From the NCBI RefSeq assembly GCF_046105845.1, contig NZ_CP151004.1: DNA of 64,000 nt. One strand, written 5' to 3'. The notes beneath the pieces are model-generated. The model made no database searches and was not told where the DNA came from. It saw only the letters and a list, made by a program, of their open reading frames with translations. How positions within the stretch are numbered: position 1 is the stretch's first letter; every line of letters starts with the position of its first letter. The stretch is from Escherichia coli. Its GTDB lineage: Bacteria > Pseudomonadota > Gammaproteobacteria > Enterobacterales > Enterobacteriaceae. Shown piece after piece: positions 6,668 to 32,293 of this stretch. Position numbers and translations under genes: made by a program.

Positions 6668-7671
6668 TGGTTTACTCCCACGTTAATTGCCGCCATTGCG
6701 CTTTGGGCAATATCCATGTCTTGTTCAACGCTACCACCGCTGATGCCAAGCCCCCCGAGCAATATTCCGTCACGCCAGAGGGGGAAGCCGCCACCAAAGG
6801 TGACGACTTTGCCTTGCATATGGCTTTCGAGCCCATAAAGCGGCGCGCCGGGTTGCACGGTATCAGCAAGCTTGTGGGTTGCTGTTTTCATCGCCACGGC
6901 GGTCCAGGCTTTTTTCGGTGCCAGTTCACTGCTGACCAACAGGGCATCAGGCATCCGCCAGGTAACACTTTCTGTTCCGTTGGCATCAACAATGCTGATG
7001 ACAACGGGAATATGCAGTTCATCCGCGCGCATTGCCGCACTACGAATGAGCTGGTGAAGATCCTGAAATGTGAGCGGCATTGTGCGTTCCTTCAATGCTG
7101 GTGTGTGGTTGGCTTCGTGATAACGTTTTGTGATTTCCTGAATCATCAGGTTTTGATGAGCAACGTTGTCTTCCACTCGGGCGAGGGCATACAGGCAATC
7201 GGAAAGTCGGTTGATATAGTGCAGCAAAACATTCCGGACGTTGGTTTCCGTTGTCAGTTCAACCAGACGTCTTTCAGCCCGTCGAGCCACTGTGCGGGCG
7301 AAATGCATGTGGCTTGCGGCTTCAGATCGACCAGGCAGAATGAAGCTGTGAACTGGGGGGACGGCGTTCATTGCGCTATCGATCGCGTTTTCCAGCGCAG
7401 CAATTTCTTCCGTACTGATGTAACGCTGCTTCGCTGACGGCTGTTCGCTTTCACTCGCGAGTTCGGCGCTAAACCAAAATATCTGTTGTTGAATGGCTTC
7501 CAGTAAGATGCGATGGCTTTCGATGGCGGTGGCGCAATAACACAGACTGAGTGTCGCGTTCAGTTCATCCAGCGTGCCATAGGTTTCGACACGTAGATGA
7601 GTTTTGCTGACGCGCTGTCCGGTAAATAAAGACGTACTTCCTGAATCACCTGTTCGGGTATAAATTGCCAT
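6664..7671 (-). CDS. pduO: PduO ATP:cob(I)alamin adenosyltransferase (with C-terminal DUF336-like domain)
   Basis: 335 aa beginning MAIYTRTGDSGSTSLFTGQRVSK, the characteristic PduO-type adenosyltransferase N-terminus. Confidence 0.9.
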   Translation of the reverse strand: MAIYTRTGDSGSTSLFTGQRVSKTHLRVETYGTLDELNATLSLCYCATAIESHRILLEAIQQQIFWFSAELASESEQPSAKQRYISTEEIAALENAIDSAMNAVPPVHSFILPGRSEAASHMHFARTVARRAERRLVELTTETNVRNVLLHYINRLSDCLYALARVEDNVAHQNLMIQEITKRYHEANHTPALKERTMPLTFQDLHQLIRSAAMRADELHIPVVISIVDANGTESVTWRMPDALLVSSELAPKKAWTAVAMKTATHKLADTVQPGAPLYGLESHMQGKVVTFGGGFPLWRDGILLGGLGISGGSVEQDMDIAQSAMAAINVGVNQ

Positions 7672-22853: not shown

Positions 22854-23014
22854 CATTCAAAACGTCTGGTTTGTCGGTCTGTGTAAGCATTCCGTCATGC
22901 AGAACAGGTTGTTTCGAATCATACAAATGATAATTTTCTTCTCATATGCGCATCTCTTATGAGCATAAACGTTATACTCTTCTGATTTATACATGTTTGC
23001 GGATGACATGATCA

Positions 23015-23992
23015 ATGGAAAAGAGAATGACGAAACAGAATAAAAACAGCCGTTGGCAGGGTTACGATCCTCGTTACATATACTCGCTCGTGGTCAGACG
23101 CTATTTTGCGGATATGAAAACCAAGATTGAGATTGCTGAGGAGCTTGGCGTTTCCCGCTTTAAAGTTGCCAGATTGATCGATGAGGCGATCGAACAGGAT
23201 TACGTGAGGTTTATCTTCCCTAAGCAGCAAGCGATGGATGAAGAAATCGCCAATAATCTACGGAAAAAATTTCATCTGGAAGATGCAATTGTTCTTTCAG
23301 TTGCTGAATCATGGACGACGCAAGAAGAACTCAATCACAAATTGGGTGAAGTCACCGCTGAATATCTTACGCAATCTCTTCATGAAGGTATGAAAGTGGG
23401 GATCGCCTGGGGACGTGTATTATCAAGTACGGTCAGTAAGTTGAGCAAGCTGCCTCCTTTAGACGTTGTGCAGTTATCTGGCGTACATCCGGGGATTGAG
23501 TTTAGTCAAGGGCCAATAGATCTTATTCATAAGATCGCTGCCATTTCGCAGGGAAAAGCGCACCCAATGTACGTGCCGATGTGGGTCGATGACGAAGAGC
23601 TTGCTGCCAGACTGGCAGGTGATCCTGCGGTATTAGATACACAGCAATATTACTCACAGTTGGATGTGGTTATCACCGGGATAGGTGACTGGAAATCAGG
23701 TTCTTCAAGCTTGTGTAAAATATTTCCGGATACCTGGTGCGAAGCTTTGTTTCAACAAGATATCGCTGCGGATGTGTGTATCTCGTTGGTCAGCAGGGAA
23801 GGGAAGATTCTTCATAGTCCTATTGAACGTCTGGGATTTGGCATTTCGACGGATCAACTACAAAAAGCCAAAAAAGTGATTGGTGTCGCCGGAGGGGAAG
23901 AGAAATATGAAGGCATTCTTGCTTCGCTGAAATCTGGACTTTTGAATGTCTTAATTACTGATTTTGATACGGCCATTAAACTTCTGGATTAA
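23015..23992 (+). CDS. SorC/DeoR-type sugar-binding transcriptional regulator
   Basis: 325 aa; N-terminal HTH (KIEIAEELGVSRFKVARLIDEA) and C-terminal sugar-phosphate-binding domain (VGIAWGRVL...VIGVAGGEEK). Confidence 0.8.
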   Translation: MEKRMTKQNKNSRWQGYDPRYIYSLVVRRYFADMKTKIEIAEELGVSRFKVARLIDEAIEQDYVRFIFPKQQAMDEEIANNLRKKFHLEDAIVLSVAESWTTQEELNHKLGEVTAEYLTQSLHEGMKVGIAWGRVLSSTVSKLSKLPPLDVVQLSGVHPGIEFSQGPIDLIHKIAAISQGKAHPMYVPMWVDDEELAARLAGDPAVLDTQQYYSQLDVVITGIGDWKSGSSSLCKIFPDTWCEALFQQDIAADVCISLVSREGKILHSPIERLGFGISTDQLQKAKKVIGVAGGEEKYEGILASLKSGLLNVLITDFDTAIKLLD

Positions 23993-24009
23993 TAGCCGTA
24001 TCTGTGAAG

Positions 24010-24038
24010 AAAGGGCAGTACCGCTGATTCTGCCCTTT
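24010..24038. terminator. Bidirectional hairpin between convergent regulator and PTS IIA gene
   Basis: Inverted repeat aagggcag...ctgccctt followed by tttaattt. Confidence 0.55.
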
Positions 24039-24043
24039 TAATT

Positions 24044-24502
24044 TCAGGATGCTGCGAGCGTATCCTCTACATATTTAGCCACGCGCGTTGCAGGTAAATT
24101 GCGGCAAGTCTCAACAAAGGCGTTATCCTGAAACAGTGTGAATAAACGACGCAATATCGACATATGTTGATCACTGGTGGCAAATGCCAGGTTAAACATA
24201 ATGCTACAATCAACTGTTAAAGCAGCATCTTCCATCTGTCCGAAAGTGACATCATTGGAGAAACGAACAATACTGATGCTGTTTACATTTACCAGCGTGT
24301 AATCGGCATGGGGAATGGCGATACCCTGACCGTTTGCCATCATTAATCCTGTCGGATAGCTTTTTTCACGTTCCAGACAGGCGTCAATGTATTCTGCAGT
24401 GATGTAGCCTTTTTCCAATAATTGCGTACCAGCAAAGGTGATCGCCGTTTGATAGTCGTTGATGCTGTTATCAACATCATTTACCAGAATTTCAAATTTC
24501 AT
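24044..24502 (-). CDS. PTS EIIA component (fructose/mannitol/galactitol type 2 family)
   Basis: 152 aa; conserved histidine context GQGIAIPHADYT typical of EIIA-2 domains. Confidence 0.8.
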   Translation of the reverse strand: MKFEILVNDVDNSINDYQTAITFAGTQLLEKGYITAEYIDACLEREKSYPTGLMMANGQGIAIPHADYTLVNVNSISIVRFSNDVTFGQMEDAALTVDCSIMFNLAFATSDQHMSILRRLFTLFQDNAFVETCRNLPATRVAKYVEDTLAAS

Positions 24503-24512
24503 TGCACACCTG

Positions 24513-24797
24513 TTATTTCAGTATCTCTTCTTTAACTGCAGCGAAAATCTCATCTTCGCCCAGACCAGTCAGTAATCCAGCGCCAACGATGACACGAGTA
24601 GTAATGGCCGGGTTATCGAGTTTGGTCGATGAAACCACCAGGTCATAGCTGTTGAAGGTATCGCTGGTGCATGCCATTAACGAAGATTTATCGACTTGCG
24701 CTTCAATTTTCTCTTCTTTCAGTAAGTCCTGCAGTACAGAGACCATGATGGAAGATGAGGCAATTCCGTTTCCGCAAACTACTAAGATTTTTTTCAT
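24513..24797 (-). CDS. PTS EIIB component (galactitol/lactose-type)
   Basis: 94 aa; N-terminal MKKILVVCGNGIASSS with phosphorylatable cysteine. Confidence 0.8.
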   Translation of the reverse strand: MKKILVVCGNGIASSSIMVSVLQDLLKEEKIEAQVDKSSLMACTSDTFNSYDLVVSSTKLDNPAITTRVIVGAGLLTGLGEDEIFAAVKEEILK

Positions 24798-24820
24798 TTG
24801 ATTATTCCTCTGTAAAAGAT

Positions 24821-26191
24821 TTAAAGCGCTTTTTCTAAATCCGTTTCAATCTGGCGACGTGATTTTTGTTTAATTAAGTATCCAATAGATAACAAAAGGA
24901 TACCTGCCATCACATAGCCAATGATTCCAACATGGCTCAGGGCGGCAAACAGACCAGTAAATGGATTCGCAGACGGGTTAAGCGAAGAGTACATCACGCT
25001 GGCATCCGGGTTTGTACCAAACTTCTGGAAGACTTCGTTGGTAGCCGGTGCCATCCACGATGCAATATACAGACCACCACCGAACAAAATGATCGAGGTC
25101 ACCCAGGTGCGAATAATGTTGCCATTGAAAACAGGCACCATGCAGGCAATGAAAAACACAAACTGAGAGAGGTCACCCAGTGGCATAACGCGGTTGCCGG
25201 GCAAGATCACTGCGAGGATCACAATCACCGGGATCAGTAATAATGCCGGGGCGATAACTGACGGATGACCCACAATCAGGGCAGTGTCCATTCCAACAGT
25301 GATTTGACGATCCGGGAAACGTTTGACCAGTTTTTTGCGTGCCACGTTGGAAAGCGGAACAAGCCCTTCCATCATGATAGAGGTCATACGTGGCAACAGA
25401 AGCATGACTGCAGCCAGATACATCCCTAACTGTAGGCTGGCAATTATGGTGTGGTAGGGGGATTTCCAGCCATAACCACAAAAGCCCAACAAAATACCAA
25501 TAATAAAACCAACCATAGTTGGATCGCCCAGAATGCCAAACCGTTTTTGAATAGTTTCGGCGGTCACATTCAGATTACGGAAGCCTGGGATGCGATCATA
25601 AATCCAGTTGAATGGATAAGCGAAAAGTAAGTAGGTATTGGCAACCGGGTGAGAGATCGCAACACCTTTTGGCAGGTTAAAGAATTTTTCGTTATTTTTA
25701 GCACCGAGATCGGCAGCGATCAGCGCCCAGACATGGAATAGCGCGGCGGTCAATGCGCCATACAGGAAGCTACCAGAATAGACGCCAACAATTGCCCCCA
25801 TTGACGCATTTTGATGAAGGTTGAAAACATCAACGTTAACACAGTCAGTCAGGCGGGCGACCAGCATTGCAATATTTACCGCAACACAGAGGGGAATAAT
25901 GATAGCGCCCATGCTGGAGCCAAATCCCATCACTGCAGTCGCTGCGCCACCAACATCGATGGCACTGAGCGAGGAACCTGTTGCTTCTGCTAATCCGGTG
26001 ACTGCCGGTTGCATTTTTTCCAGCATCAGTTTGATGGTCATGGTTAGCGCAATGAAACCAATGCCGACTTTGATGGCGGAGGAGATACATTCTGAAAGAG
26101 GACGGCCAAGTATCTTCATCAGTACCAGAAAGATGACCGGGATAAATATAAAATTTCCCAGATCGTTTATAAATTGCGTGATCAGTTCCAT
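24821..26191 (-). CDS. PTS EIIC permease, galactitol (GatC) family
   Basis: 456 aa polytopic membrane protein; resembles GatC/SgcC-type EIIC. Confidence 0.8.
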   Translation of the reverse strand: MELITQFINDLGNFIFIPVIFLVLMKILGRPLSECISSAIKVGIGFIALTMTIKLMLEKMQPAVTGLAEATGSSLSAIDVGGAATAVMGFGSSMGAIIIPLCVAVNIAMLVARLTDCVNVDVFNLHQNASMGAIVGVYSGSFLYGALTAALFHVWALIAADLGAKNNEKFFNLPKGVAISHPVANTYLLFAYPFNWIYDRIPGFRNLNVTAETIQKRFGILGDPTMVGFIIGILLGFCGYGWKSPYHTIIASLQLGMYLAAVMLLLPRMTSIMMEGLVPLSNVARKKLVKRFPDRQITVGMDTALIVGHPSVIAPALLLIPVIVILAVILPGNRVMPLGDLSQFVFFIACMVPVFNGNIIRTWVTSIILFGGGLYIASWMAPATNEVFQKFGTNPDASVMYSSLNPSANPFTGLFAALSHVGIIGYVMAGILLLSIGYLIKQKSRRQIETDLEKAL

Positions 26192-26194
26192 ACA

Positions 26195-26731
26195 TTAACC
26201 CTCAGATTTTTCATCATCTGGTCGGAAACCCATATTCCAGCGTACATCAGCGGGCTTAACCAGCAATGCATTATCGTTACGTTCAGCTTCTAGTAAGTTC
26301 TTTTTAGAATTTTCTCTGGCGGTGGTGAAGTCGAATGGGTTATCCAACCATGCATCGACAATCATTTTGCTGTATTCGAGATCGTTGACCCGGCAACCCA
26401 GTCCAATAACTTGTGCGTTATTGCTGAGTCGCGCCCGCTTTGCGGAGTAGGGGTTAGTAACCGCAACGGCTCTTATGCCCCAGTGTTTGTTGATCTGACA
26501 AGTAAAGCCAATGCCAGTCCCACAAATGTAAATTCCCAGACGGCACTCATCGCGTTGAATAATGCCTGCCATTTCGTCGGCTAGACGCGCGAAGTTATTG
26601 ACACCTTGTTCCTTACATGTGACGGGATCGTACACGATCTCCATGTTTTTCTCTTCTATGAGGTATTTTTTTATCTCCTCTTTACGTGCAAAACCTACAT
26701 CATCGCTTGCGATAGCAATCTTCGTTTTCAT
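26195..26731 (-). CDS. RpiB/LacAB-family sugar-phosphate isomerase with C-terminal extension
   Basis: 178 aa; motif GIYICGTGIGFTCQINKHWGIRAVAV resembles the RpiB active-site region; first gene of the minus-strand PTS operon. Confidence 0.75.
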   Translation of the reverse strand: MKTKIAIASDDVGFARKEEIKKYLIEEKNMEIVYDPVTCKEQGVNNFARLADEMAGIIQRDECRLGIYICGTGIGFTCQINKHWGIRAVAVTNPYSAKRARLSNNAQVIGLGCRVNDLEYSKMIVDAWLDNPFDFTTARENSKKNLLEAERNDNALLVKPADVRWNMGFRPDDEKSEG

Positions 26732-27079
26732 TTCATTTTGCCTGTCGTTAAGTAACTAAAGCCAAGTATGCTGTTGGTAAATATTGGTTGTCAATTGAGA
26801 TCTAAATCACAAAATTTATAACTGATTGATTTTTATGATAAAAAAAACCAATAAAAACAAATAAAAAATAAATTAAGCCAATTGAGACAAATTGGGATTG
26901 TACAGTGGCGTTGTAATGAATAATAAAAACTCATTTATTATCAATCGGATATATGGTTTTTGAACTATTGTCTTTATTGGGTTTATTTGTACTTTCCACT
27001 GTTAGTGTTTGTTTTTGTTTGCATCATCTGTGCTATGCTTGGCGTTTTCTAAGATGGGTAATAGATTTCAGGAGGAAGG
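26732..27079. promoter_or_regulatory. AT-rich divergent control region between the minus-strand PTS operon and the DeoR-family regulator gene
   Basis: About 350 bp, very AT-rich, no coding potential, flanked by divergent gene starts. Confidence 0.5.
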
Positions 27080-27835
27080 ATGTATCTGGTTGATGAAAGG
27101 CGAAAGTTAATACTTGAAGACTTAATGTCGGCAGGTACGGTCTATGTCAGTGATCTTGCACGAAAGTATGAAGTAACGTATGAGACCATCAGGAAAGATT
27201 TGACCCATCTTGAACAAAAAGGGCTGCTGATCAAAAGCCATGGTGGGGCGACTTTAAAGCAAAGGGCCATAGAGCATCCCTTTCAGGTCAGGGAAAAAGA
27301 AAATAACTCTTATAAGAAGGCGATAGCTCGTAAAGCGCTTGATTTCATTCCGCCTAATAGTTCGATGATTATCGGTACGGGCAGTACCACTTTTGAGCTG
27401 GCTAACCTGTTATGTATGAAGTCTGGGTTTAAAATCTTCACAGATTCGCTCCCCGTTGCCAGTGTGTTGATTGAATCTGACAATCAGGTTTTTCTCTTTG
27501 GCGGCGAACTGCGTAGAAAGAGTTCCTCAGTGTTTGGGGGGTGGGCGGTATCTATGATCAACGATATACATGTTGATCTCTGTTTCATTGGAACCGACGG
27601 TTTTAGTAACATGACTGGTCCATCGACGCCTTCTTCTTCTGATGCGTTTTTGGATCGCACGATAATTTCGCACTCAGACAAAAAATATATCCTCGGTGAT
27701 TACACCAAGTTTGAGCGCAGCAGTTTGTTTAAGATCTGCGACTGGTCGGAGATCACCGCCCTTATTACCAACGATCATGCCGACAAAGAGGGGATTGCCG
27801 AAGTCGCAAAATACACGTCAGTAATAACCTGTTAG
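27080..27835 (+). CDS. DeoR-family transcriptional regulator
   Basis: 251 aa; N-terminal HTH (VYVSDLARKYEVTYETIRKDLTHLEQKGLL) and C-terminal DeoR sugar-binding domain. Confidence 0.85.
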   Translation: MYLVDERRKLILEDLMSAGTVYVSDLARKYEVTYETIRKDLTHLEQKGLLIKSHGGATLKQRAIEHPFQVREKENNSYKKAIARKALDFIPPNSSMIIGTGSTTFELANLLCMKSGFKIFTDSLPVASVLIESDNQVFLFGGELRRKSSSVFGGWAVSMINDIHVDLCFIGTDGFSNMTGPSTPSSSDAFLDRTIISHSDKKYILGDYTKFERSSLFKICDWSEITALITNDHADKEGIAEVAKYTSVITC

Positions 27836-28010
27836 AACTCACTACGACACGCCTTCTCTCTTCGAATCAGCTTTGCCAAATGTAATCATTTCATAATTAT
27901 CAAGTGAGCATCCATGGCGATGCTTGCTTAGCGCCCTCTATTGAATACATCCTCTACATATTGCCAGTTTCACTTCATTTTTAGCGACGAAATCATTTTT
28001 TGAATCACGA

Positions 28011-28152
28011 TTTGCTCATATGAGCGTAAATAGTGTCGCCATTATGTGATTTTTTGTGATCTGGATTTAATTTCTCAGATCTCGTCATTTGTCCACAGGA
28101 TCGTTGTGCTATAACTGCTCATATGAAGGTTGTTCAATGCTCATGTGAGCAT
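28011..28152. promoter_or_regulatory. Three palindromic operator-like sites upstream of the plus-strand PTS operon
   Basis: tgctcatatgagcg (28013-28026), gctcatatga (28117-28126) and aatgctcatgtgagcatt (28137-28152) share the inverted-repeat core GCTCAT-ATGAGC. Confidence 0.5.
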
Positions 28153-28172
28153 TGGGGGTGAGGGGGAAGGAT

Positions 28173-28616
28173 ATGATATCGATCAGTGTTGCCGATGGTG
28201 CGGGACTACAGAACTACGATGCCGTGCTTGAACATATTTATAACACGCATCGTGAAACGAATACGGTGAAAGAGAGCTGGCTCAATGCTATGCGTAAACG
28301 CGAAGCGGAATATCCGACAGGAATAGAACTGGAAGGTTATTCTATCGCTATACCACACTGTGATAGTGAACATGCGAATCAACCGGCTATTTACATCATC
28401 CGTCTGCCAGACGCAATACCTGTGAACAGGGCTGATGAAGATGGAATATTGTGGGTCAGACTGGTCGTTAATATCATTGTTACGGATCCTGCTGACCAGC
28501 TTCGATTGTTAAAGTCATTATTTAACCATCTCCAAAATGAAGAATTCTACCAAAACTTACTGACACTTCCCGTCGAGGATGCAAAAGCACTTTTTGTATC
28601 CAGGATAATCCAATAG
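28173..28616 (+). CDS. PTS EIIA component (type 2 family)
   Basis: Probable start at second ATG (ggaagga ribosome-binding site); conserved histidine context YSIAIPHCDSE. Confidence 0.8.
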   Translation: MISISVADGAGLQNYDAVLEHIYNTHRETNTVKESWLNAMRKREAEYPTGIELEGYSIAIPHCDSEHANQPAIYIIRLPDAIPVNRADEDGILWVRLVVNIIVTDPADQLRLLKSLFNHLQNEEFYQNLLTLPVEDAKALFVSRIIQ

Positions 28617-28634
28617 TAAAAACTGGAGTTTATT

Positions 28635-28928
28635 ATGATTAATATTCTTGTTGCTTGTGGTAGCGGTGTCGCTACATCTACGCTTGCTGCTGATGAAGTG
28701 AAGTCAGTATGTGCTGAATATGGTATTACGGCATTTAAAATCAACAAATGCAGTATGGCTGAACTTTCTTCTGAGATGGCTCATGCAGATATTGTACTCA
28801 CAACTAATAATTATAAAGGTGATATTGGGAAACCACATATGAGCGTTGCAGGTTTTGTAACGGGTATTAATGAAGGAGCATTACGCAAGAAATTAGGAGA
28901 GTTATTAACTGAATTAGCAAATAGCTAA
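28635..28928 (+). CDS. PTS EIIB component (galactitol-type)
   Basis: 97 aa; MINILVACGSGVATST with phosphorylatable cysteine. Confidence 0.8.
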   Translation: MINILVACGSGVATSTLAADEVKSVCAEYGITAFKINKCSMAELSSEMAHADIVLTTNNYKGDIGKPHMSVAGFVTGINEGALRKKLGELLTELANS

Positions 28929-28948
28929 ACCTGACAGGAATAATAAAA

Positions 28949-30202
28949 ATGGAAATGTTGAAAAATTTAATGGAAACAATCACCGGAATGGGGGCGACTG
29001 CAATACTGCCGCTGGTGATATTTATTTTAGGTCTGGTGTTCAGAATGAAACCAGGTGCCGCGATCAAGTCGGGCATCACCGTCGGTATTGGTTTTATTGG
29101 TTTAGGTTTAGTTGTTGGTTTATTAAATAGTTCATTACAGCCAGCTATCGAGTATTACTCAAAAGTAGGCAGTGGTTTTACGGTTGCAGATATTGGTTGG
29201 CCAGCAGTCGGTGCGGCTGCATGGGTAGCACCTTTTGCCGCATTAGTGATACCAGTTGGCATCGTACTTAACCTGATTCTGGTGCGCCTGAAATTAACCA
29301 AAACGTTAAATGTTGATATCTGGAACTATATGCATTTTTTAGTTCCGGGCGCTCTGGCATATTTTGTGTTCGACAGTTTTATCATCGGCTTCTCTGTCGC
29401 GGTGGCTTTGAGTATTGCGGCCCTGTTTATTGGCGATTTGATTGCGCCCAGATGGCAAAAATATTATGGACTCGAGGGAACAACCTGTACCACGATGATT
29501 CATATCGGCTGGACTCTACCGTTCGCCTGGGTAGTAAATAAAATCATTGATTACATCCCTGGGTTAAATAAGTTAGATGTTGACTTAAACAGTGTGCAAA
29601 AACGCCTGGGTGTCTTTGGTGAACCTGCAATTATCGGTGTTATCGTTGGCGCATTACTCGGAGTTTTAACGAAACAGGCAATTACCACAATTGTTCCCAT
29701 GGCGATGGGGGTTGCTGGTGTAATGGTATTGTTACCTAAAGTGGTCGGTGTGCTGATGGAAGGTCTTAACCCGATTGGGAAAAGTGCCAAAGAAATCATG
29801 CAAAAACAGATGGGTAAAGATGCTGAATTAAACATCGGTATGGATTGTGCACTGGCGTTGGGGGATCCGGCGACGGTCACCGTGACAGTCATTACCATTC
29901 CTTTAACTATGCTATGTGCTCTGGTATTGCCTGATATTAAGATCTTCCCAATTGGCGTATTGATGTCAATTATTTATATGACCACCATGACCGTAATGGC
30001 GAGCAACGGTAACGTGATTCGTTCGATTATCTCGACCTTGTTATTCTGCGTTGTAGTGATGTATTTAGGCGGTTATGTCGCACCAGGGGCAACGCAATTT
30101 TTAGCTGGAGCCGGTGTAGGCTTGCAAGGACAAGGTACTGATTTTGTATTAACCGGCCCGTGGGAAATTTTAACCTATTGGTTGAGCACCGTATTACATT
30201 GA
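28949..30202 (+). CDS. PTS EIIC permease, galactitol (GatC) family
   Basis: 417 aa polytopic membrane protein of GatC/SgcC type. Confidence 0.8.
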   Translation: MEMLKNLMETITGMGATAILPLVIFILGLVFRMKPGAAIKSGITVGIGFIGLGLVVGLLNSSLQPAIEYYSKVGSGFTVADIGWPAVGAAAWVAPFAALVIPVGIVLNLILVRLKLTKTLNVDIWNYMHFLVPGALAYFVFDSFIIGFSVAVALSIAALFIGDLIAPRWQKYYGLEGTTCTTMIHIGWTLPFAWVVNKIIDYIPGLNKLDVDLNSVQKRLGVFGEPAIIGVIVGALLGVLTKQAITTIVPMAMGVAGVMVLLPKVVGVLMEGLNPIGKSAKEIMQKQMGKDAELNIGMDCALALGDPATVTVTVITIPLTMLCALVLPDIKIFPIGVLMSIIYMTTMTVMASNGNVIRSIISTLLFCVVVMYLGGYVAPGATQFLAGAGVGLQGQGTDFVLTGPWEILTYWLSTVLH

Positions 30203-30224
30203 TTTAATAATCTGGAGTTTTAAC

Positions 30225-30869
30225 ATGGCAAAAATATTACCTTCTATATTTGGCGCGGATATTTTACGCCTGAAAGATGAAATTCATTTTCTGGAAGAGG
30301 AACAAACCGAAATATTGCACGTTGATTTAATGGATGGCACTTACGTCAGTAATATTGCCTTTGGCCCAAATCAAATTGCAGCAATGAAAAAAGCCAGTTC
30401 GATGATCTTTGACGTGCATATGATGCTGGCAAATCCTGAGCGACATATTGATGATGTAATCAATACCGGGGCGGAGATGATTTCTGTACATTATGAGTCG
30501 ACGCCACATGTGCATTATATTATTCAAAAAATCAAAAAAGCGGGGCGCAAAGCAGGTGTTGTGCTTAATCCTGGGACACCTGAATCTGTCATCGAGTATT
30601 TATTAGATGATATTGATTATATATTGTTAATGACAATTAATCCGGGGCAACTAGGCCAGACATTTATTCATAAAAGCCTGGAGAAAATCCGTAACACCAA
30701 AAAATTGATATCTGGCAGAGATATTCAAATTGAAGTGGATGGTGGCGTTAATCTTGATAATGTGAAACAAGTTAAAGAAGCGGGGGCTGACCTTATTGTT
30801 GTTGGCGGTGCATTATTTAACAAACAGCCTCATGAAAGTTATCAGGCATTAAAAATCGCTGTTCAGTGA
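30225..30869 (+). CDS. Ribulose-phosphate 3-epimerase family protein (ketose-phosphate 3-epimerase)
   Basis: 214 aa; N-terminal LPSIFGADILRLKDE matches the RPE SILSAD signature region; metal-binding His/Asp residues present. Confidence 0.8.
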   Translation: MAKILPSIFGADILRLKDEIHFLEEEQTEILHVDLMDGTYVSNIAFGPNQIAAMKKASSMIFDVHMMLANPERHIDDVINTGAEMISVHYESTPHVHYIIQKIKKAGRKAGVVLNPGTPESVIEYLLDDIDYILLMTINPGQLGQTFIHKSLEKIRNTKKLISGRDIQIEVDGGVNLDNVKQVKEAGADLIVVGGALFNKQPHESYQALKIAVQ

Positions 30870-30964
30870 TCATAATCTAAAAATTTTACATCCAGCTAAG
30901 TGAGGTTTTCGATTTCATATCGGGAGGAAAACCCCAACTAAAAAGTCTTTAATGGAGAAAAGTA

Positions 30965-31717
30965 ATGAGTAATTTTGCAGGTAAAGTGGTTTTAGTTACC
31001 GGAGGTGCTCACGGTATTGGCAAAGGGATAGCTAAACAATTTGCTGATCGTGGTGCACATACTGTTATTGTTGACTATAACGAAGAGAACGGCAAGGCCA
31101 CTGCAGCAGAGTTAACTTTTGGCGATGTTAAATCGCTGTTTGTTAAAACAGATGTCTCCGATCCACAGGCATTAGTGGATGTACGGGAAAAAGTATTTGC
31201 TACCTTTGGTCGTATTGATGTGTTGATATTAAATGCCGGTGTGGCATTTGCCAATAAAGTTAACAATATTTCTTTTGAGGAATGGAATAAGACTATCGCA
31301 ATTAACTTATCGGGATTATTTAATACCGTTAAGGCATTTTATGATGATTTCCTGACAAATAAGGGATCTATTGTTTATATCTCATCGGGATCAGCGCTTT
31401 CGGGGACTGGGGGCGGCGTGAGCTATCCTGCCAGTAAAGCGGGAGGCGAAGGATTGATTCGTGGTCTGGCAAAAGAGTTAGGACCAAAAGGCGTAAATGT
31501 TAATGCGATTGCTCCCCGCTTAATAGACACCGGAGATATGATGCGGGTCAACTATCCAACACAAGCCGATTTAGACGCTGTCCTGGAAAAAATACCCGTC
31601 CGTCGTCTGGGGACTATCGATGATGTGGCTAACCTGGCAATATTTTTGGCAGATAAAGATAACTCTTATATTCAGGGACAAACCATTTTAATGGATGGTG
31701 GCCGGACTATTGCTTAA
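30965..31717 (+). CDS. Short-chain dehydrogenase/reductase (SDR) family oxidoreductase
   Basis: 250 aa; Rossmann motif VTGGAHGIGKG and catalytic YPASK. Confidence 0.85.
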   Translation: MSNFAGKVVLVTGGAHGIGKGIAKQFADRGAHTVIVDYNEENGKATAAELTFGDVKSLFVKTDVSDPQALVDVREKVFATFGRIDVLILNAGVAFANKVNNISFEEWNKTIAINLSGLFNTVKAFYDDFLTNKGSIVYISSGSALSGTGGGVSYPASKAGGEGLIRGLAKELGPKGVNVNAIAPRLIDTGDMMRVNYPTQADLDAVLEKIPVRRLGTIDDVANLAIFLADKDNSYIQGQTILMDGGRTIA

Positions 31718-31732
31718 AAAGGGAGAGGAAAA

Positions 31733-32293
31733 ATGAGTGTTCAGGAAAATACTCTTAATATTCTGCATGAATTAGAGAGTAATGCACTGAAGATTGACGA
31801 TGCTCAGGCTGCACAGTTTATTTCGCAAATCAGAAATGCCCGGCATATTTTTTTGCAGGGAGCTGGGCGCAGTGGCATTGCTATTCGCGCTTTTGCTAAT
31901 CGCTTGCTGCATTTAGGTTTTTCAGTAAGCGTTGTGGGAGAAATATCATCACCGCATACCCAACCTGGAGATCTATTAATTATTGGGTCAGGCAGTGGTG
32001 AAACTACCAGTTTAAAAAGTCTGGCACAAAAAGCAGTTGATAGCGGAGTAAACGTAGCTCTGGTAACTATGAAAGCAGATTCGACGATCGGTAAATTAGC
32101 TCAATCTGTGTTGGTACTACCAGGAAGTGTGAAAGACGATAACAATCGTGTTGCAGGCGCTTTCGCACAACCAATGGGATCGGCTTTTGAGCAGCTCTGC
32201 TTTATTACTTATGATGCAATTGTTCTGGAGTTGATGTCTGAACTGGGTGAAAGCAGTGCCACAATGTTTACCCGACACGCTGATCTGGAATGA
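31733..32293 (+). CDS. SIS-domain sugar-phosphate isomerase (6-phospho-3-hexuloisomerase-like)
   Basis: 186 aa; SIS-domain features (FLQGAGRSG ... LLIIGSGSGETT) and size typical of PHI-type isomerases. Confidence 0.7.
   Translation: MSVQENTLNILHELESNALKIDDAQAAQFISQIRNARHIFLQGAGRSGIAIRAFANRLLHLGFSVSVVGEISSPHTQPGDLLIIGSGSGETTSLKSLAQKAVDSGVNVALVTMKADSTIGKLAQSVLVLPGSVKDDNNRVAGAFAQPMGSAFEQLCFITYDAIVLELMSELGESSATMFTRHADLE

Follow-up and report, generated by a model that had tools for sequence, protein, structure and literature searches.

In SorC-family repressors, each dimer of DNA-binding domains reads one half-operator (PMC11229326). The tetramers of Bacillus subtilis DeoR and CggR bind an operator of 39-45 bp that consists of a pair of half-operators, of which one can be degenerate, and no binding of B. 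subtilis DeoR to single half-operators could be measured (PMC11229326). We analysed a stretch of 64,000 nucleotides of Escherichia coli DNA (hereafter the window), in which copies of a GCTCAT-ATGAGC palindrome precede a PTS operon (cluster 2). Comparison of related loci indicates that these palindromes are likely the operator array of a SorC-family repressor encoded in the same island, through which cluster 2 would be controlled.

The window is of E. coli chromosomal type, its cobUST showing 98.8% identity to E. coli. The locus is an accessory island located beside cobUST-ldtA and is carried by 233 of 5426 complete E. coli genomes (~4%), including ATCC 8739. It is also present in Klebsiella, Enterobacter, Citrobacter, Pectobacterium and Providencia, and in the onion-virulence region OVR-A of Pantoea ananatis. 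The features of the window are listed in the table; PWM denotes the weight matrix described below.

Table. Genes, palindromes and predicted promoter elements in the 64-kb window
Feature	Position	Strand	Sequence	Remarks
Motif copy, putative sorC promoter	22940-22951		TCTCATATGCGC	PWM 12.2
Motif copy, putative sorC promoter	22953-22964		TCTCTTATGAGC	PWM 12.8
Motif copy, putative sorC promoter	22973-		TATACTCTTCTGA	PWM 7.0; holds TATACT -10 candidate
SorC-family regulator gene	23027-23992	+
Cluster 1: EIIA, EIIB, EIIC (Gat family), RpiB/LacAB isomerase	24044-26731	-
TTGGT-N5-TTGGT tandem	26774-26788		TTGGTAAATATTGGT	rpiB/deoR divergent region, next to rpiB promoter
DeoR/GlpR-family regulator gene	27080-27835	+
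O0	27895-27912		AATTATCAAGTGAGCATC	degenerate fourth copy; E. coli keeps right half-site only
O1	28013-28025 (footprint 28011-28028)		TGCTCATATGAGC	core GCTCATATGAGC, 28014-28025; perfect 12-bp palindrome
CRP-like site	28055-28070		TGTGATCTGGATTTAA	between O1 and O2; centre ~-60 from predicted start
Predicted extended -10 box	28107-28115	+	TGcTATAAC	with upstream G: GTGcTATAAC, 28106-28115; from cross-genus invariance
O2	28116-28128 (footprint 28114-28131)		TGCTCATATGAAG	core GCTCATATGAAG, 28117-28128
O3	28138-28151 (footprint 28136-28153)		TGCTCATGTGAGCA	core GCTCATGTGAGC, 28139-28150; near-perfect palindrome
EIIA start	28173	+	ATG	behind Shine-Dalgarno GGGGGAAGGA; matches PGAP start in E. 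coli relatives
Cluster 2, whole operon	28173-32293	+		Pfam, NCBIfam; PGAP of E. coli EC28 orthologues
Cluster 2 EIIA	28173-28616	+
Cluster 2 EIIB	28635-28928	+
Cluster 2 EIIC (Gat family)	28949-30202	+
Cluster 2 Rpe-family epimerase	30225-30869	+
Cluster 2 SDR dehydrogenase	30965-31717	+
Cluster 2 HxlB-like SIS isomerase	31733-32293	+

A reading of the sequence alone (the sequence-only reading) had reported three palindrome copies upstream of the cluster-2 PTS genes, and all three are found where it placed them, within 28011-28152. On inspection, the left half of O2 is intact and its right half degenerate; O3 with its flanks reads AATGCTCATGTGAGCATT. The sites are spaced, start to start, by 103 bp (O1-O2) and 22 bp (O2-O3). 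The position of O0 is occupied in other genera by a full palindrome, for example TGCTCATAAGAGCA. A search with the GCTCAT-ATGAGC 12-mer, allowing at most two mismatches, returned six matches in 64 kb against 2.26 expected, a number reached by none of 100 shuffles. In addition, we scored the window with a weight matrix trained on sites from other genera only and on no E. coli site, the scores being independent for the window alone since the other loci supplied the training sites. O1 (24.2) and O3 (23.8) exceed the top score across 200 simulated 64-kb sequences (20.9); O2 and O0 score 11.4 and 10.8. The consensus assigned to the motif is ATTGCTCATATGAGCAAT. The sequence-only reading had singled out 26732-27079 as a place where the palindrome might recur, and no copy was found there, either with at most two mismatches or with a weight-matrix score of at least 9.

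We assessed the conservation of the sites within E. coli and between genera. The 337-bp intergenic region 27836-28172 shows 82-95% identity between E. coli strains, against ~98% for the flanking genes, and falls into several allele classes, one difference being a 12-bp indel in ATCC 8739 located in the flank adjoining O1. In an alignment of eight E. coli alleles, O1, O2 and the arms of O3 are unchanged, and substitutions occur in the flanks. The variation of O3, both within E. coli and between genera, affects the two central bases only, the arms being invariant; in some E. coli strains the central TG is replaced by TA, which makes the palindrome perfect. In the intergenic alignment across what we count as nine genera (E. 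coli, Entomohabitans, Citrobacter, Enterobacter twice, Klebsiella, Acerihabitans, Pantoea and Providencia), mean column identity is 55%, and the invariant columns cluster in O1, TGTGA, GTGnTATAA, O2, O3 and the Shine-Dalgarno sequence; in O2 it is the left half, GCTC..TG, that does not vary. The site spacing is likewise kept, at ~103 bp and 20-23 bp. Among the related loci described below, the O2-O3 distance is 20-23 bp in 14 of the 14 with an array, and ten loci place O1 and O2 100-104 bp apart, a Vibrio-like contig (L040) 94 bp. O0 lies 116-122 bp upstream of O1 in seven loci, namely the window and six others in which O0 is complete (L008, L009, L010, L022, L024 and L038), and 183 bp from it in Providencia (L020). 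Conservation in orthologous loci, the absence of which the sequence-only reading had named, together with a lack of regulator binding, as grounds for giving up its proposal, is thus observed both among E. coli alleles and across the nine genera. Its term 'operator array' is supported by palindromes that stay invariant amid fast-evolving DNA and keep their distances from the conserved extended -10 box which they flank. Judged by these alignments, the palindromes are under selection and probably serve as conserved binding sites for a protein ahead of an operon for sugar transport.

The position of the sites relative to the promoter was then considered. A scan with the sigma-70 consensus did not call the cluster-2 promoter, because its -35 element is poor; the conserved extended -10 box therefore served to predict a transcription start at ~28122. 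With respect to this predicted start, O2, which abuts the -10 box, would cover the start itself, while O3 is centred at ~+23, in the predicted leader, O1 at ~-103 and O0 at ~-219. The CRP consensus is TGTGA-N6-TCACA, and class I CRP sites are typically centred near -61.5. The CRP-like site between O1 and O2 matches 7 of 10 consensus positions, with a good left half, whose TGTGA is invariant in the nine genera, and a poor right half; its distance is counted from the predicted start. The upstream ATG that O3 had been said to overlap does fall within it (28137-28139), but it is not the start of EIIA. It opens a frame of three codons, ATG CTC ATG TGA (28137-28148); this mini-ORF lies inside O3, 25 bp upstream of the EIIA start, and may be a by-product of the palindrome.

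A motif-like sequence, AAACCACATATGAGCGTT, is also found inside the EIIB gene (28830-28847; weight-matrix score 12.8), with counterparts at the equivalent position of L008, L020 and L038; L022 and L024 have a similar one at the start codon of HxlB. We set these aside as operators, coding sequence being the simplest explanation (..CAT ATG AGC GTT encodes His-Met-Ser-Val, or Met-Ser-Val at the start codon). They probably reflect coding constraint, the other reading being a downstream auxiliary operator.

To assign a regulator to the palindromes, we compared 35 related loci, 25 of which came from a scan of a genome collection with the DeoR-family protein of the window, contigs carrying SorC orthologues being fetched afterwards. 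The gene content of the 25 DeoR loci was established by tblastn with all island proteins, SorC orthologues were counted from 58% identity upwards, and the motif was scored as present when a site differed by at most two mismatches from the window's own O1 14-mer, TGCTCATATGAGCA. Firstly, of the 15 loci with a SorC orthologue 14 carry the motif, compared with 1 of the 20 that lack such an orthologue (Fisher p = 9e-8, uncorrected for phylogeny; the loci are related, so that this value overstates their independence and is indicative only). Among the 25 loci of the DeoR scan, cluster 2 and SorC occur in six only, and the array is restricted to the same six. Secondly, the SorC-family protein is the only regulator whose gene co-occurs with the palindrome, which is also found upstream of that gene. 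Thirdly, the array accompanies sorC where the gene order differs. In P. ananatis (L039; O1, O2 and O3) and Acerihabitans (L038; O0 to O3), sorC lies directly upstream of cluster 2 and the retrieved DNA contains no DeoR gene. The DeoR gene is likewise missing in Rouxiella (L033), where sorC lies within the operon, in Glaesserella (L034) and in a metagenome contig (L042), each of which has an O2+O3 pair, 22 bp apart in the first two and 21 bp in the third. The Vibrio-like contig L040 carries both modules separately: sorC, O1, O2, O3 and cluster 2 form one block, the three sites lying between sorC and cluster 2, and deoR, the TTGGT motif and cluster 1 form another, 5.6 kb away; the TTGGT tandems, between deoR and rpiB, are at a distance of 6 kb. 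Among the loci compared, L040 is the cleanest natural experiment for assigning the regulator. Against SorC, only weak motif-like sequences are found in one locus with a SorC orthologue of 58% identity (L037), and in the window a second regulon separates sorC from the array, which is 4 kb away.

Comparison of the window (23992-28011) with L038, L039 and L040 gives the island a mosaic appearance. In Pantoea and Acerihabitans sorC immediately precedes the operator array and cluster 2; the deoR-cluster 1 module occurs by itself in Gilliamella, Enterococcus and others, and lies exactly between sorC and O0 in E. coli, Klebsiella, Citrobacter, Enterobacter and Pectobacterium; and in the Vibrio-like contig the two modules are side by side in a different order. 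The sorC-cluster 2 unit of L039 corresponds, by gene and gene length, to the set sorC-PTS-rpe-fabG-hxlB of OVR-A, and its flanking rbsA, LacI and 285-bp hypothetical genes match this region as well; the OVR-A study gives a list of genes, with no function for the set (PMC5817063).

Some loci depart from this picture in their own ways. In a Gilliamella-type contig (L035, 5675-5710), a SorC homologue of 46% identity lies beside an operon for a mannose-family PTS, a Zn-ADH and a SIS protein; outward half-sites TACTCATTTG...CAAATGAGCA span 31 bp there, as a pair of sites spaced by 21 bp would, and surround a CRP-like TGTGATCGAAGTCAACA, the left half overlapping the EIIA start codon. In Enterobacter sp. 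EA-1 (L024, 1428-11216), most island genes give split tblastn matches, and the locus is therefore probably pseudogenised or from a low-quality assembly; a (CAAAACG)n-like heptamer tandem lies between the deoR stop and O0 (6800-6848), and O1-O2 is 100 bp, not 103. In Proteus vulgaris (L011), an O0-like remnant, TATGCTCATTAGAGGGAA (878-895), follows a deoR gene of 88% identity and gives way to unrelated sequence. The next 6 kb downstream yielded no cluster-2 gene, and cluster 2 thus seems lost or replaced.

The SorC-family regulator is a protein of 321 residues of the sugar-binding SorC/DeoR-Bsu subfamily. The C-terminal sugar-binding domain PF04198 (Sugar-bind) was identified on a 99%-identical protein (P0121) and on all homologues listed. 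Matches in the PDB, over residues 16-320, are Klebsiella SorC (2w48, E = 1.8e-22, the alignment beginning at residue 16), B. subtilis DeoR (8r7y, residues 23-319) and LsrR (4l5i), and the effector domain matches 3efb, 2gnp and 4oqp. At the N-terminus, we found a helix-turn-helix domain of the SorC/DeoR(Bsu) subclass, which resembles sigma-70 region 4: residues 22-57 give a weak match to a SigB/F/G region, the segment KTK-EIAEELG-SRFKVARLI is conserved, and its helix-turn-helix SRFKVARLI is invariant among SorC orthologues. The best NCBIfam match is B. subtilis DeoR (NF053881), at 131 bits against a cut-off of 420, and the protein falls far under the equivalog cut-offs for B. subtilis DeoR and LsrR alike. 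By these domain and profile matches, it has the features of the SorC family and is not an orthologue of B. subtilis DeoR.

Weaker copies of the motif (22937-22990) overlap the putative sorC promoter. Their scores are to be read against a chance level at which values of 12-13 arise about 3 times per 64 kb, and the E. coli copies are weak. Upstream of sorC, the loci L008, L009, L010, L020, L022, L024, L038 and L039 share a conserved block of the form ATGAGC(A/G)-N7-9-(T)ATACTCTTTTGA(G/T), which holds two motif-like sites 23-24 bp apart over the conserved TATACT box (12.8 and 7.0 in the window); a stronger pair, scoring 10.8 and 17.4 and 24 bp apart, is found in L040. Such pairs over the TATACT box suggest autoregulation: the copies are candidate autoregulatory sites through which the regulator probably represses its own promoter.

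It is conceivable that the palindromes are bound by a factor encoded outside the island, such as a global regulator of the host, and that their co-occurrence with sorC reflects co-inheritance. As a rule sorC is inherited along with cluster 2, and co-occurrence alone therefore cannot fully separate a SorC site from an element of the cluster-2 promoter. However, the motif is also found with a SorC orthologue of 61% identity at a different operon, an FGGY kinase / rpe-SIS-MFS locus without a DeoR gene (L036), which has two sites 21 bp apart and a third, and it is found upstream of sorC itself. Moreover, SorC is the sole regulator common to the loci from Enterobacteriaceae, Erwiniaceae, Yersiniaceae, Morganellaceae and Pasteurellaceae and the Vibrio-like contig, and we know of no E. 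coli global regulator whose consensus the motif matches. Since the motif accompanies SorC both to a non-PTS operon and to sorC promoters, in at least six bacterial families, we regard a host factor as unlikely.

The sequence-only reading had named the adjacent DeoR-family regulator as the probable binder of the array; on this view the regulator would repress cluster 2, immediately downstream of its own gene. The DeoR gene is indeed adjacent to the array and in the same orientation in the window and in L008, L009, L010, L020, L022, L024 and L041, and looping between multiple palindromic operators is known for some DeoR-family regulators, for instance E. coli DeoR. Against this, the motif is found in 9 of 27 loci with DeoR and in 6 of 8 without it, an association that is, if anything, negative (odds ratio 0.17), and across genomes it does not go together with the DeoR-family gene. 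Six loci whose retrieved DNA contains no DeoR gene have an intact array (L033, L034, L036, L038, L039 and L042), upstream of a cluster-2-type EIIA in five of them and at the non-PTS operon in L036; in L040 DeoR is elsewhere. Conversely, no array is found in the 18 loci that have DeoR but lack SorC, which include Gilliamella, Enterococcus, Paenibacillus, Lactobacillus and Thermophilibacter and yield a single isolated match with two mismatches (L015). The comparative loci thus largely refute DeoR as the protein that binds the palindromes, and we consider this assignment very improbable.

The conserved partner of the DeoR orthologue is a different one. Its gene and the rpiB-EIIC-EIIB-EIIA cluster 1 are divergently oriented in every one of the 25 scanned loci, and the rpiB/deoR divergent region contains a TTGGT-N5-TTGGT tandem in 22 of 27 DeoR loci, including L040 and L041. 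The taxa concerned are Thermophilibacter (Coriobacteriia), Enterococcus, Paenibacillus, Lactobacillus, Gilliamella and enterobacteria. The tandem occurs once in the 64-kb window, is absent from 27836-28172, and is absent from loci that have SorC and no DeoR. The protein itself carries the Pfam domains HTH_DeoR and DeoRC, its AgaR-like NCBIfam match (171 bits) being below the cut-off. This distribution makes TTGGTAAATATTGGT a likely operator of the DeoR-family regulator, which very probably regulates the Gat-family PTS cluster 1 and would do so through this tandem instead of the palindromes. The rpiB/deoR divergent region also contains CCAAT-type repeats at ~26846-26890 and ~26966-26990, and a strong CRP-type site, TGAGATCTAAATCACA (26796-26811), which matches 9 of 10 consensus positions; at the equivalent place, Gilliamella has a perfect TGTGATCTGGATCACA.

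A role at the RNA level, with O3 as a leader hairpin affecting mRNA stability or translation, is the least credible reading and was rejected: RNA of 28120-28180 does pair the O3 arms when folded (-13.5 kcal/mol, z = -1.9), by a narrow margin over shuffled sequences, 7 of 200 of which fold as well, but every DNA palindrome folds as RNA by construction, the arms show no compensatory changes while the centre alone varies, O2 is unable to form a hairpin, O1 and O0, left unexplained, share the sequence upstream of the predicted promoter, which argues for sequence-specific recognition of duplex DNA, and an Rfam search of 26600-28300 gave no match at E values up to 1.

From the sites, their conservation, their spacing and their co-occurrence with sorC, all of which were computed, we infer how the SorC-family regulator might bind and loop the DNA, where transcription would start, and what CRP and an inducer might do. 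Half-operators ~20-22 bp apart, at or just downstream of the promoter, as described for the family (PMC11229326), are what O2+O3 presents. This fit with the half-operator geometry of the SorC family leads us to propose a tetramer on O2+O3, auxiliary roles for O1 and O0, and induction by a sugar phosphate. As long as inducer is absent, a tetramer of the SorC type, built from two dimers of DNA-binding domains, would sit on the composite operator O2+O3, whose half-operators, 22 bp apart and directly behind the -10 box, would span ~-6 to +32, and would there block open-complex formation or promoter escape. O1, as a distal high-affinity operator, and O0, a full site in other genera ~120 bp further up, would be auxiliary sites that either raise the local concentration of the repressor or close a repression loop enclosing the CRP-like activator site. 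Binding of a phosphorylated sugar produced by the pathway to the PF04198 domain would relieve repression. As a more tentative extension, which we hold to be possible and rather doubtful, the four operators may form a phase-conserved array that closes a lac- or deo-like loop around the CRP site, the regulator having been uncoupled from it by the inserted DeoR-cluster 1 regulon.

In the literature searched, queries with the motif string and the operon returned unrelated sequence strings only, and the pairing of this motif with this regulator is unreported. The main value of the present analysis is a corrected regulator assignment: the motif and its target operon, previously read as belonging to the neighbouring DeoR, now go, on balance, to an uncharacterised SorC-family protein, and the neighbouring DeoR becomes a separate module with a motif of its own. 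Adjacency is therefore a poor guide to the pairing of regulators and targets in mosaic islands, and two PTS operons are each provided with a testable motif-regulator pair and regulon. No new regulatory principle is involved, the proposed device being an ordinary repressor-operator switch; what is mildly unusual is the multi-operator layout and a regulator parted from its operators by the inserted DeoR/cluster-1 module.

Among known systems, B. subtilis DeoR, acting at the dra-nupC-pdp operator, belongs to the same family and the same subclass of DNA-binding domain, and its half-operators also lie ~20 bp apart, one good and one degenerate, at or beside the promoter (PMC11229326). It differs in the sequence recognised, ATTGAA-N6-TTCAAT instead of GCTCAT-ATGAGC, and in lacking the one or two extra solitary palindromes that stand here 100-220 bp upstream. 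The structural work on the SorC family describes a single compact operator of 39-45 bp, whereas here a composite O2+O3 is combined with solitary sites, and O1 and O0 do not fit the published model of two adjacent half-operators. SorC of the Klebsiella pneumoniae sor operon and E. coli LsrR are similar to the regulator over their full length, though distantly; both respond to sugar phosphates and are encoded beside the PTS or sugar operons that they target, which we count as a likeness, the comparison covering proteins and operons. Unlike the sorbose system, with its mannose-family PTS, the operon described here encodes a Gat-family PTS together with Rpe, SDR and HxlB-like enzymes. The E. coli DeoR/GlpR-family PTS repressors AgaR, GatR, SrlR and UlaR represent the family of the neighbouring regulator, but the conserved cis-element of that neighbour is a TTGGT-N5-TTGGT direct repeat and not the palindrome. 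Finally, the repressor families of the lac, gal and E. coli deo loops (LacI/GalR and E. coli DeoR) are unrelated to SorC, and looping at the present locus is suggested by the spacing; the layout nevertheless resembles theirs, with a primary operator at the start, an auxiliary operator ~90-100 bp upstream and a CRP-type site between the two.
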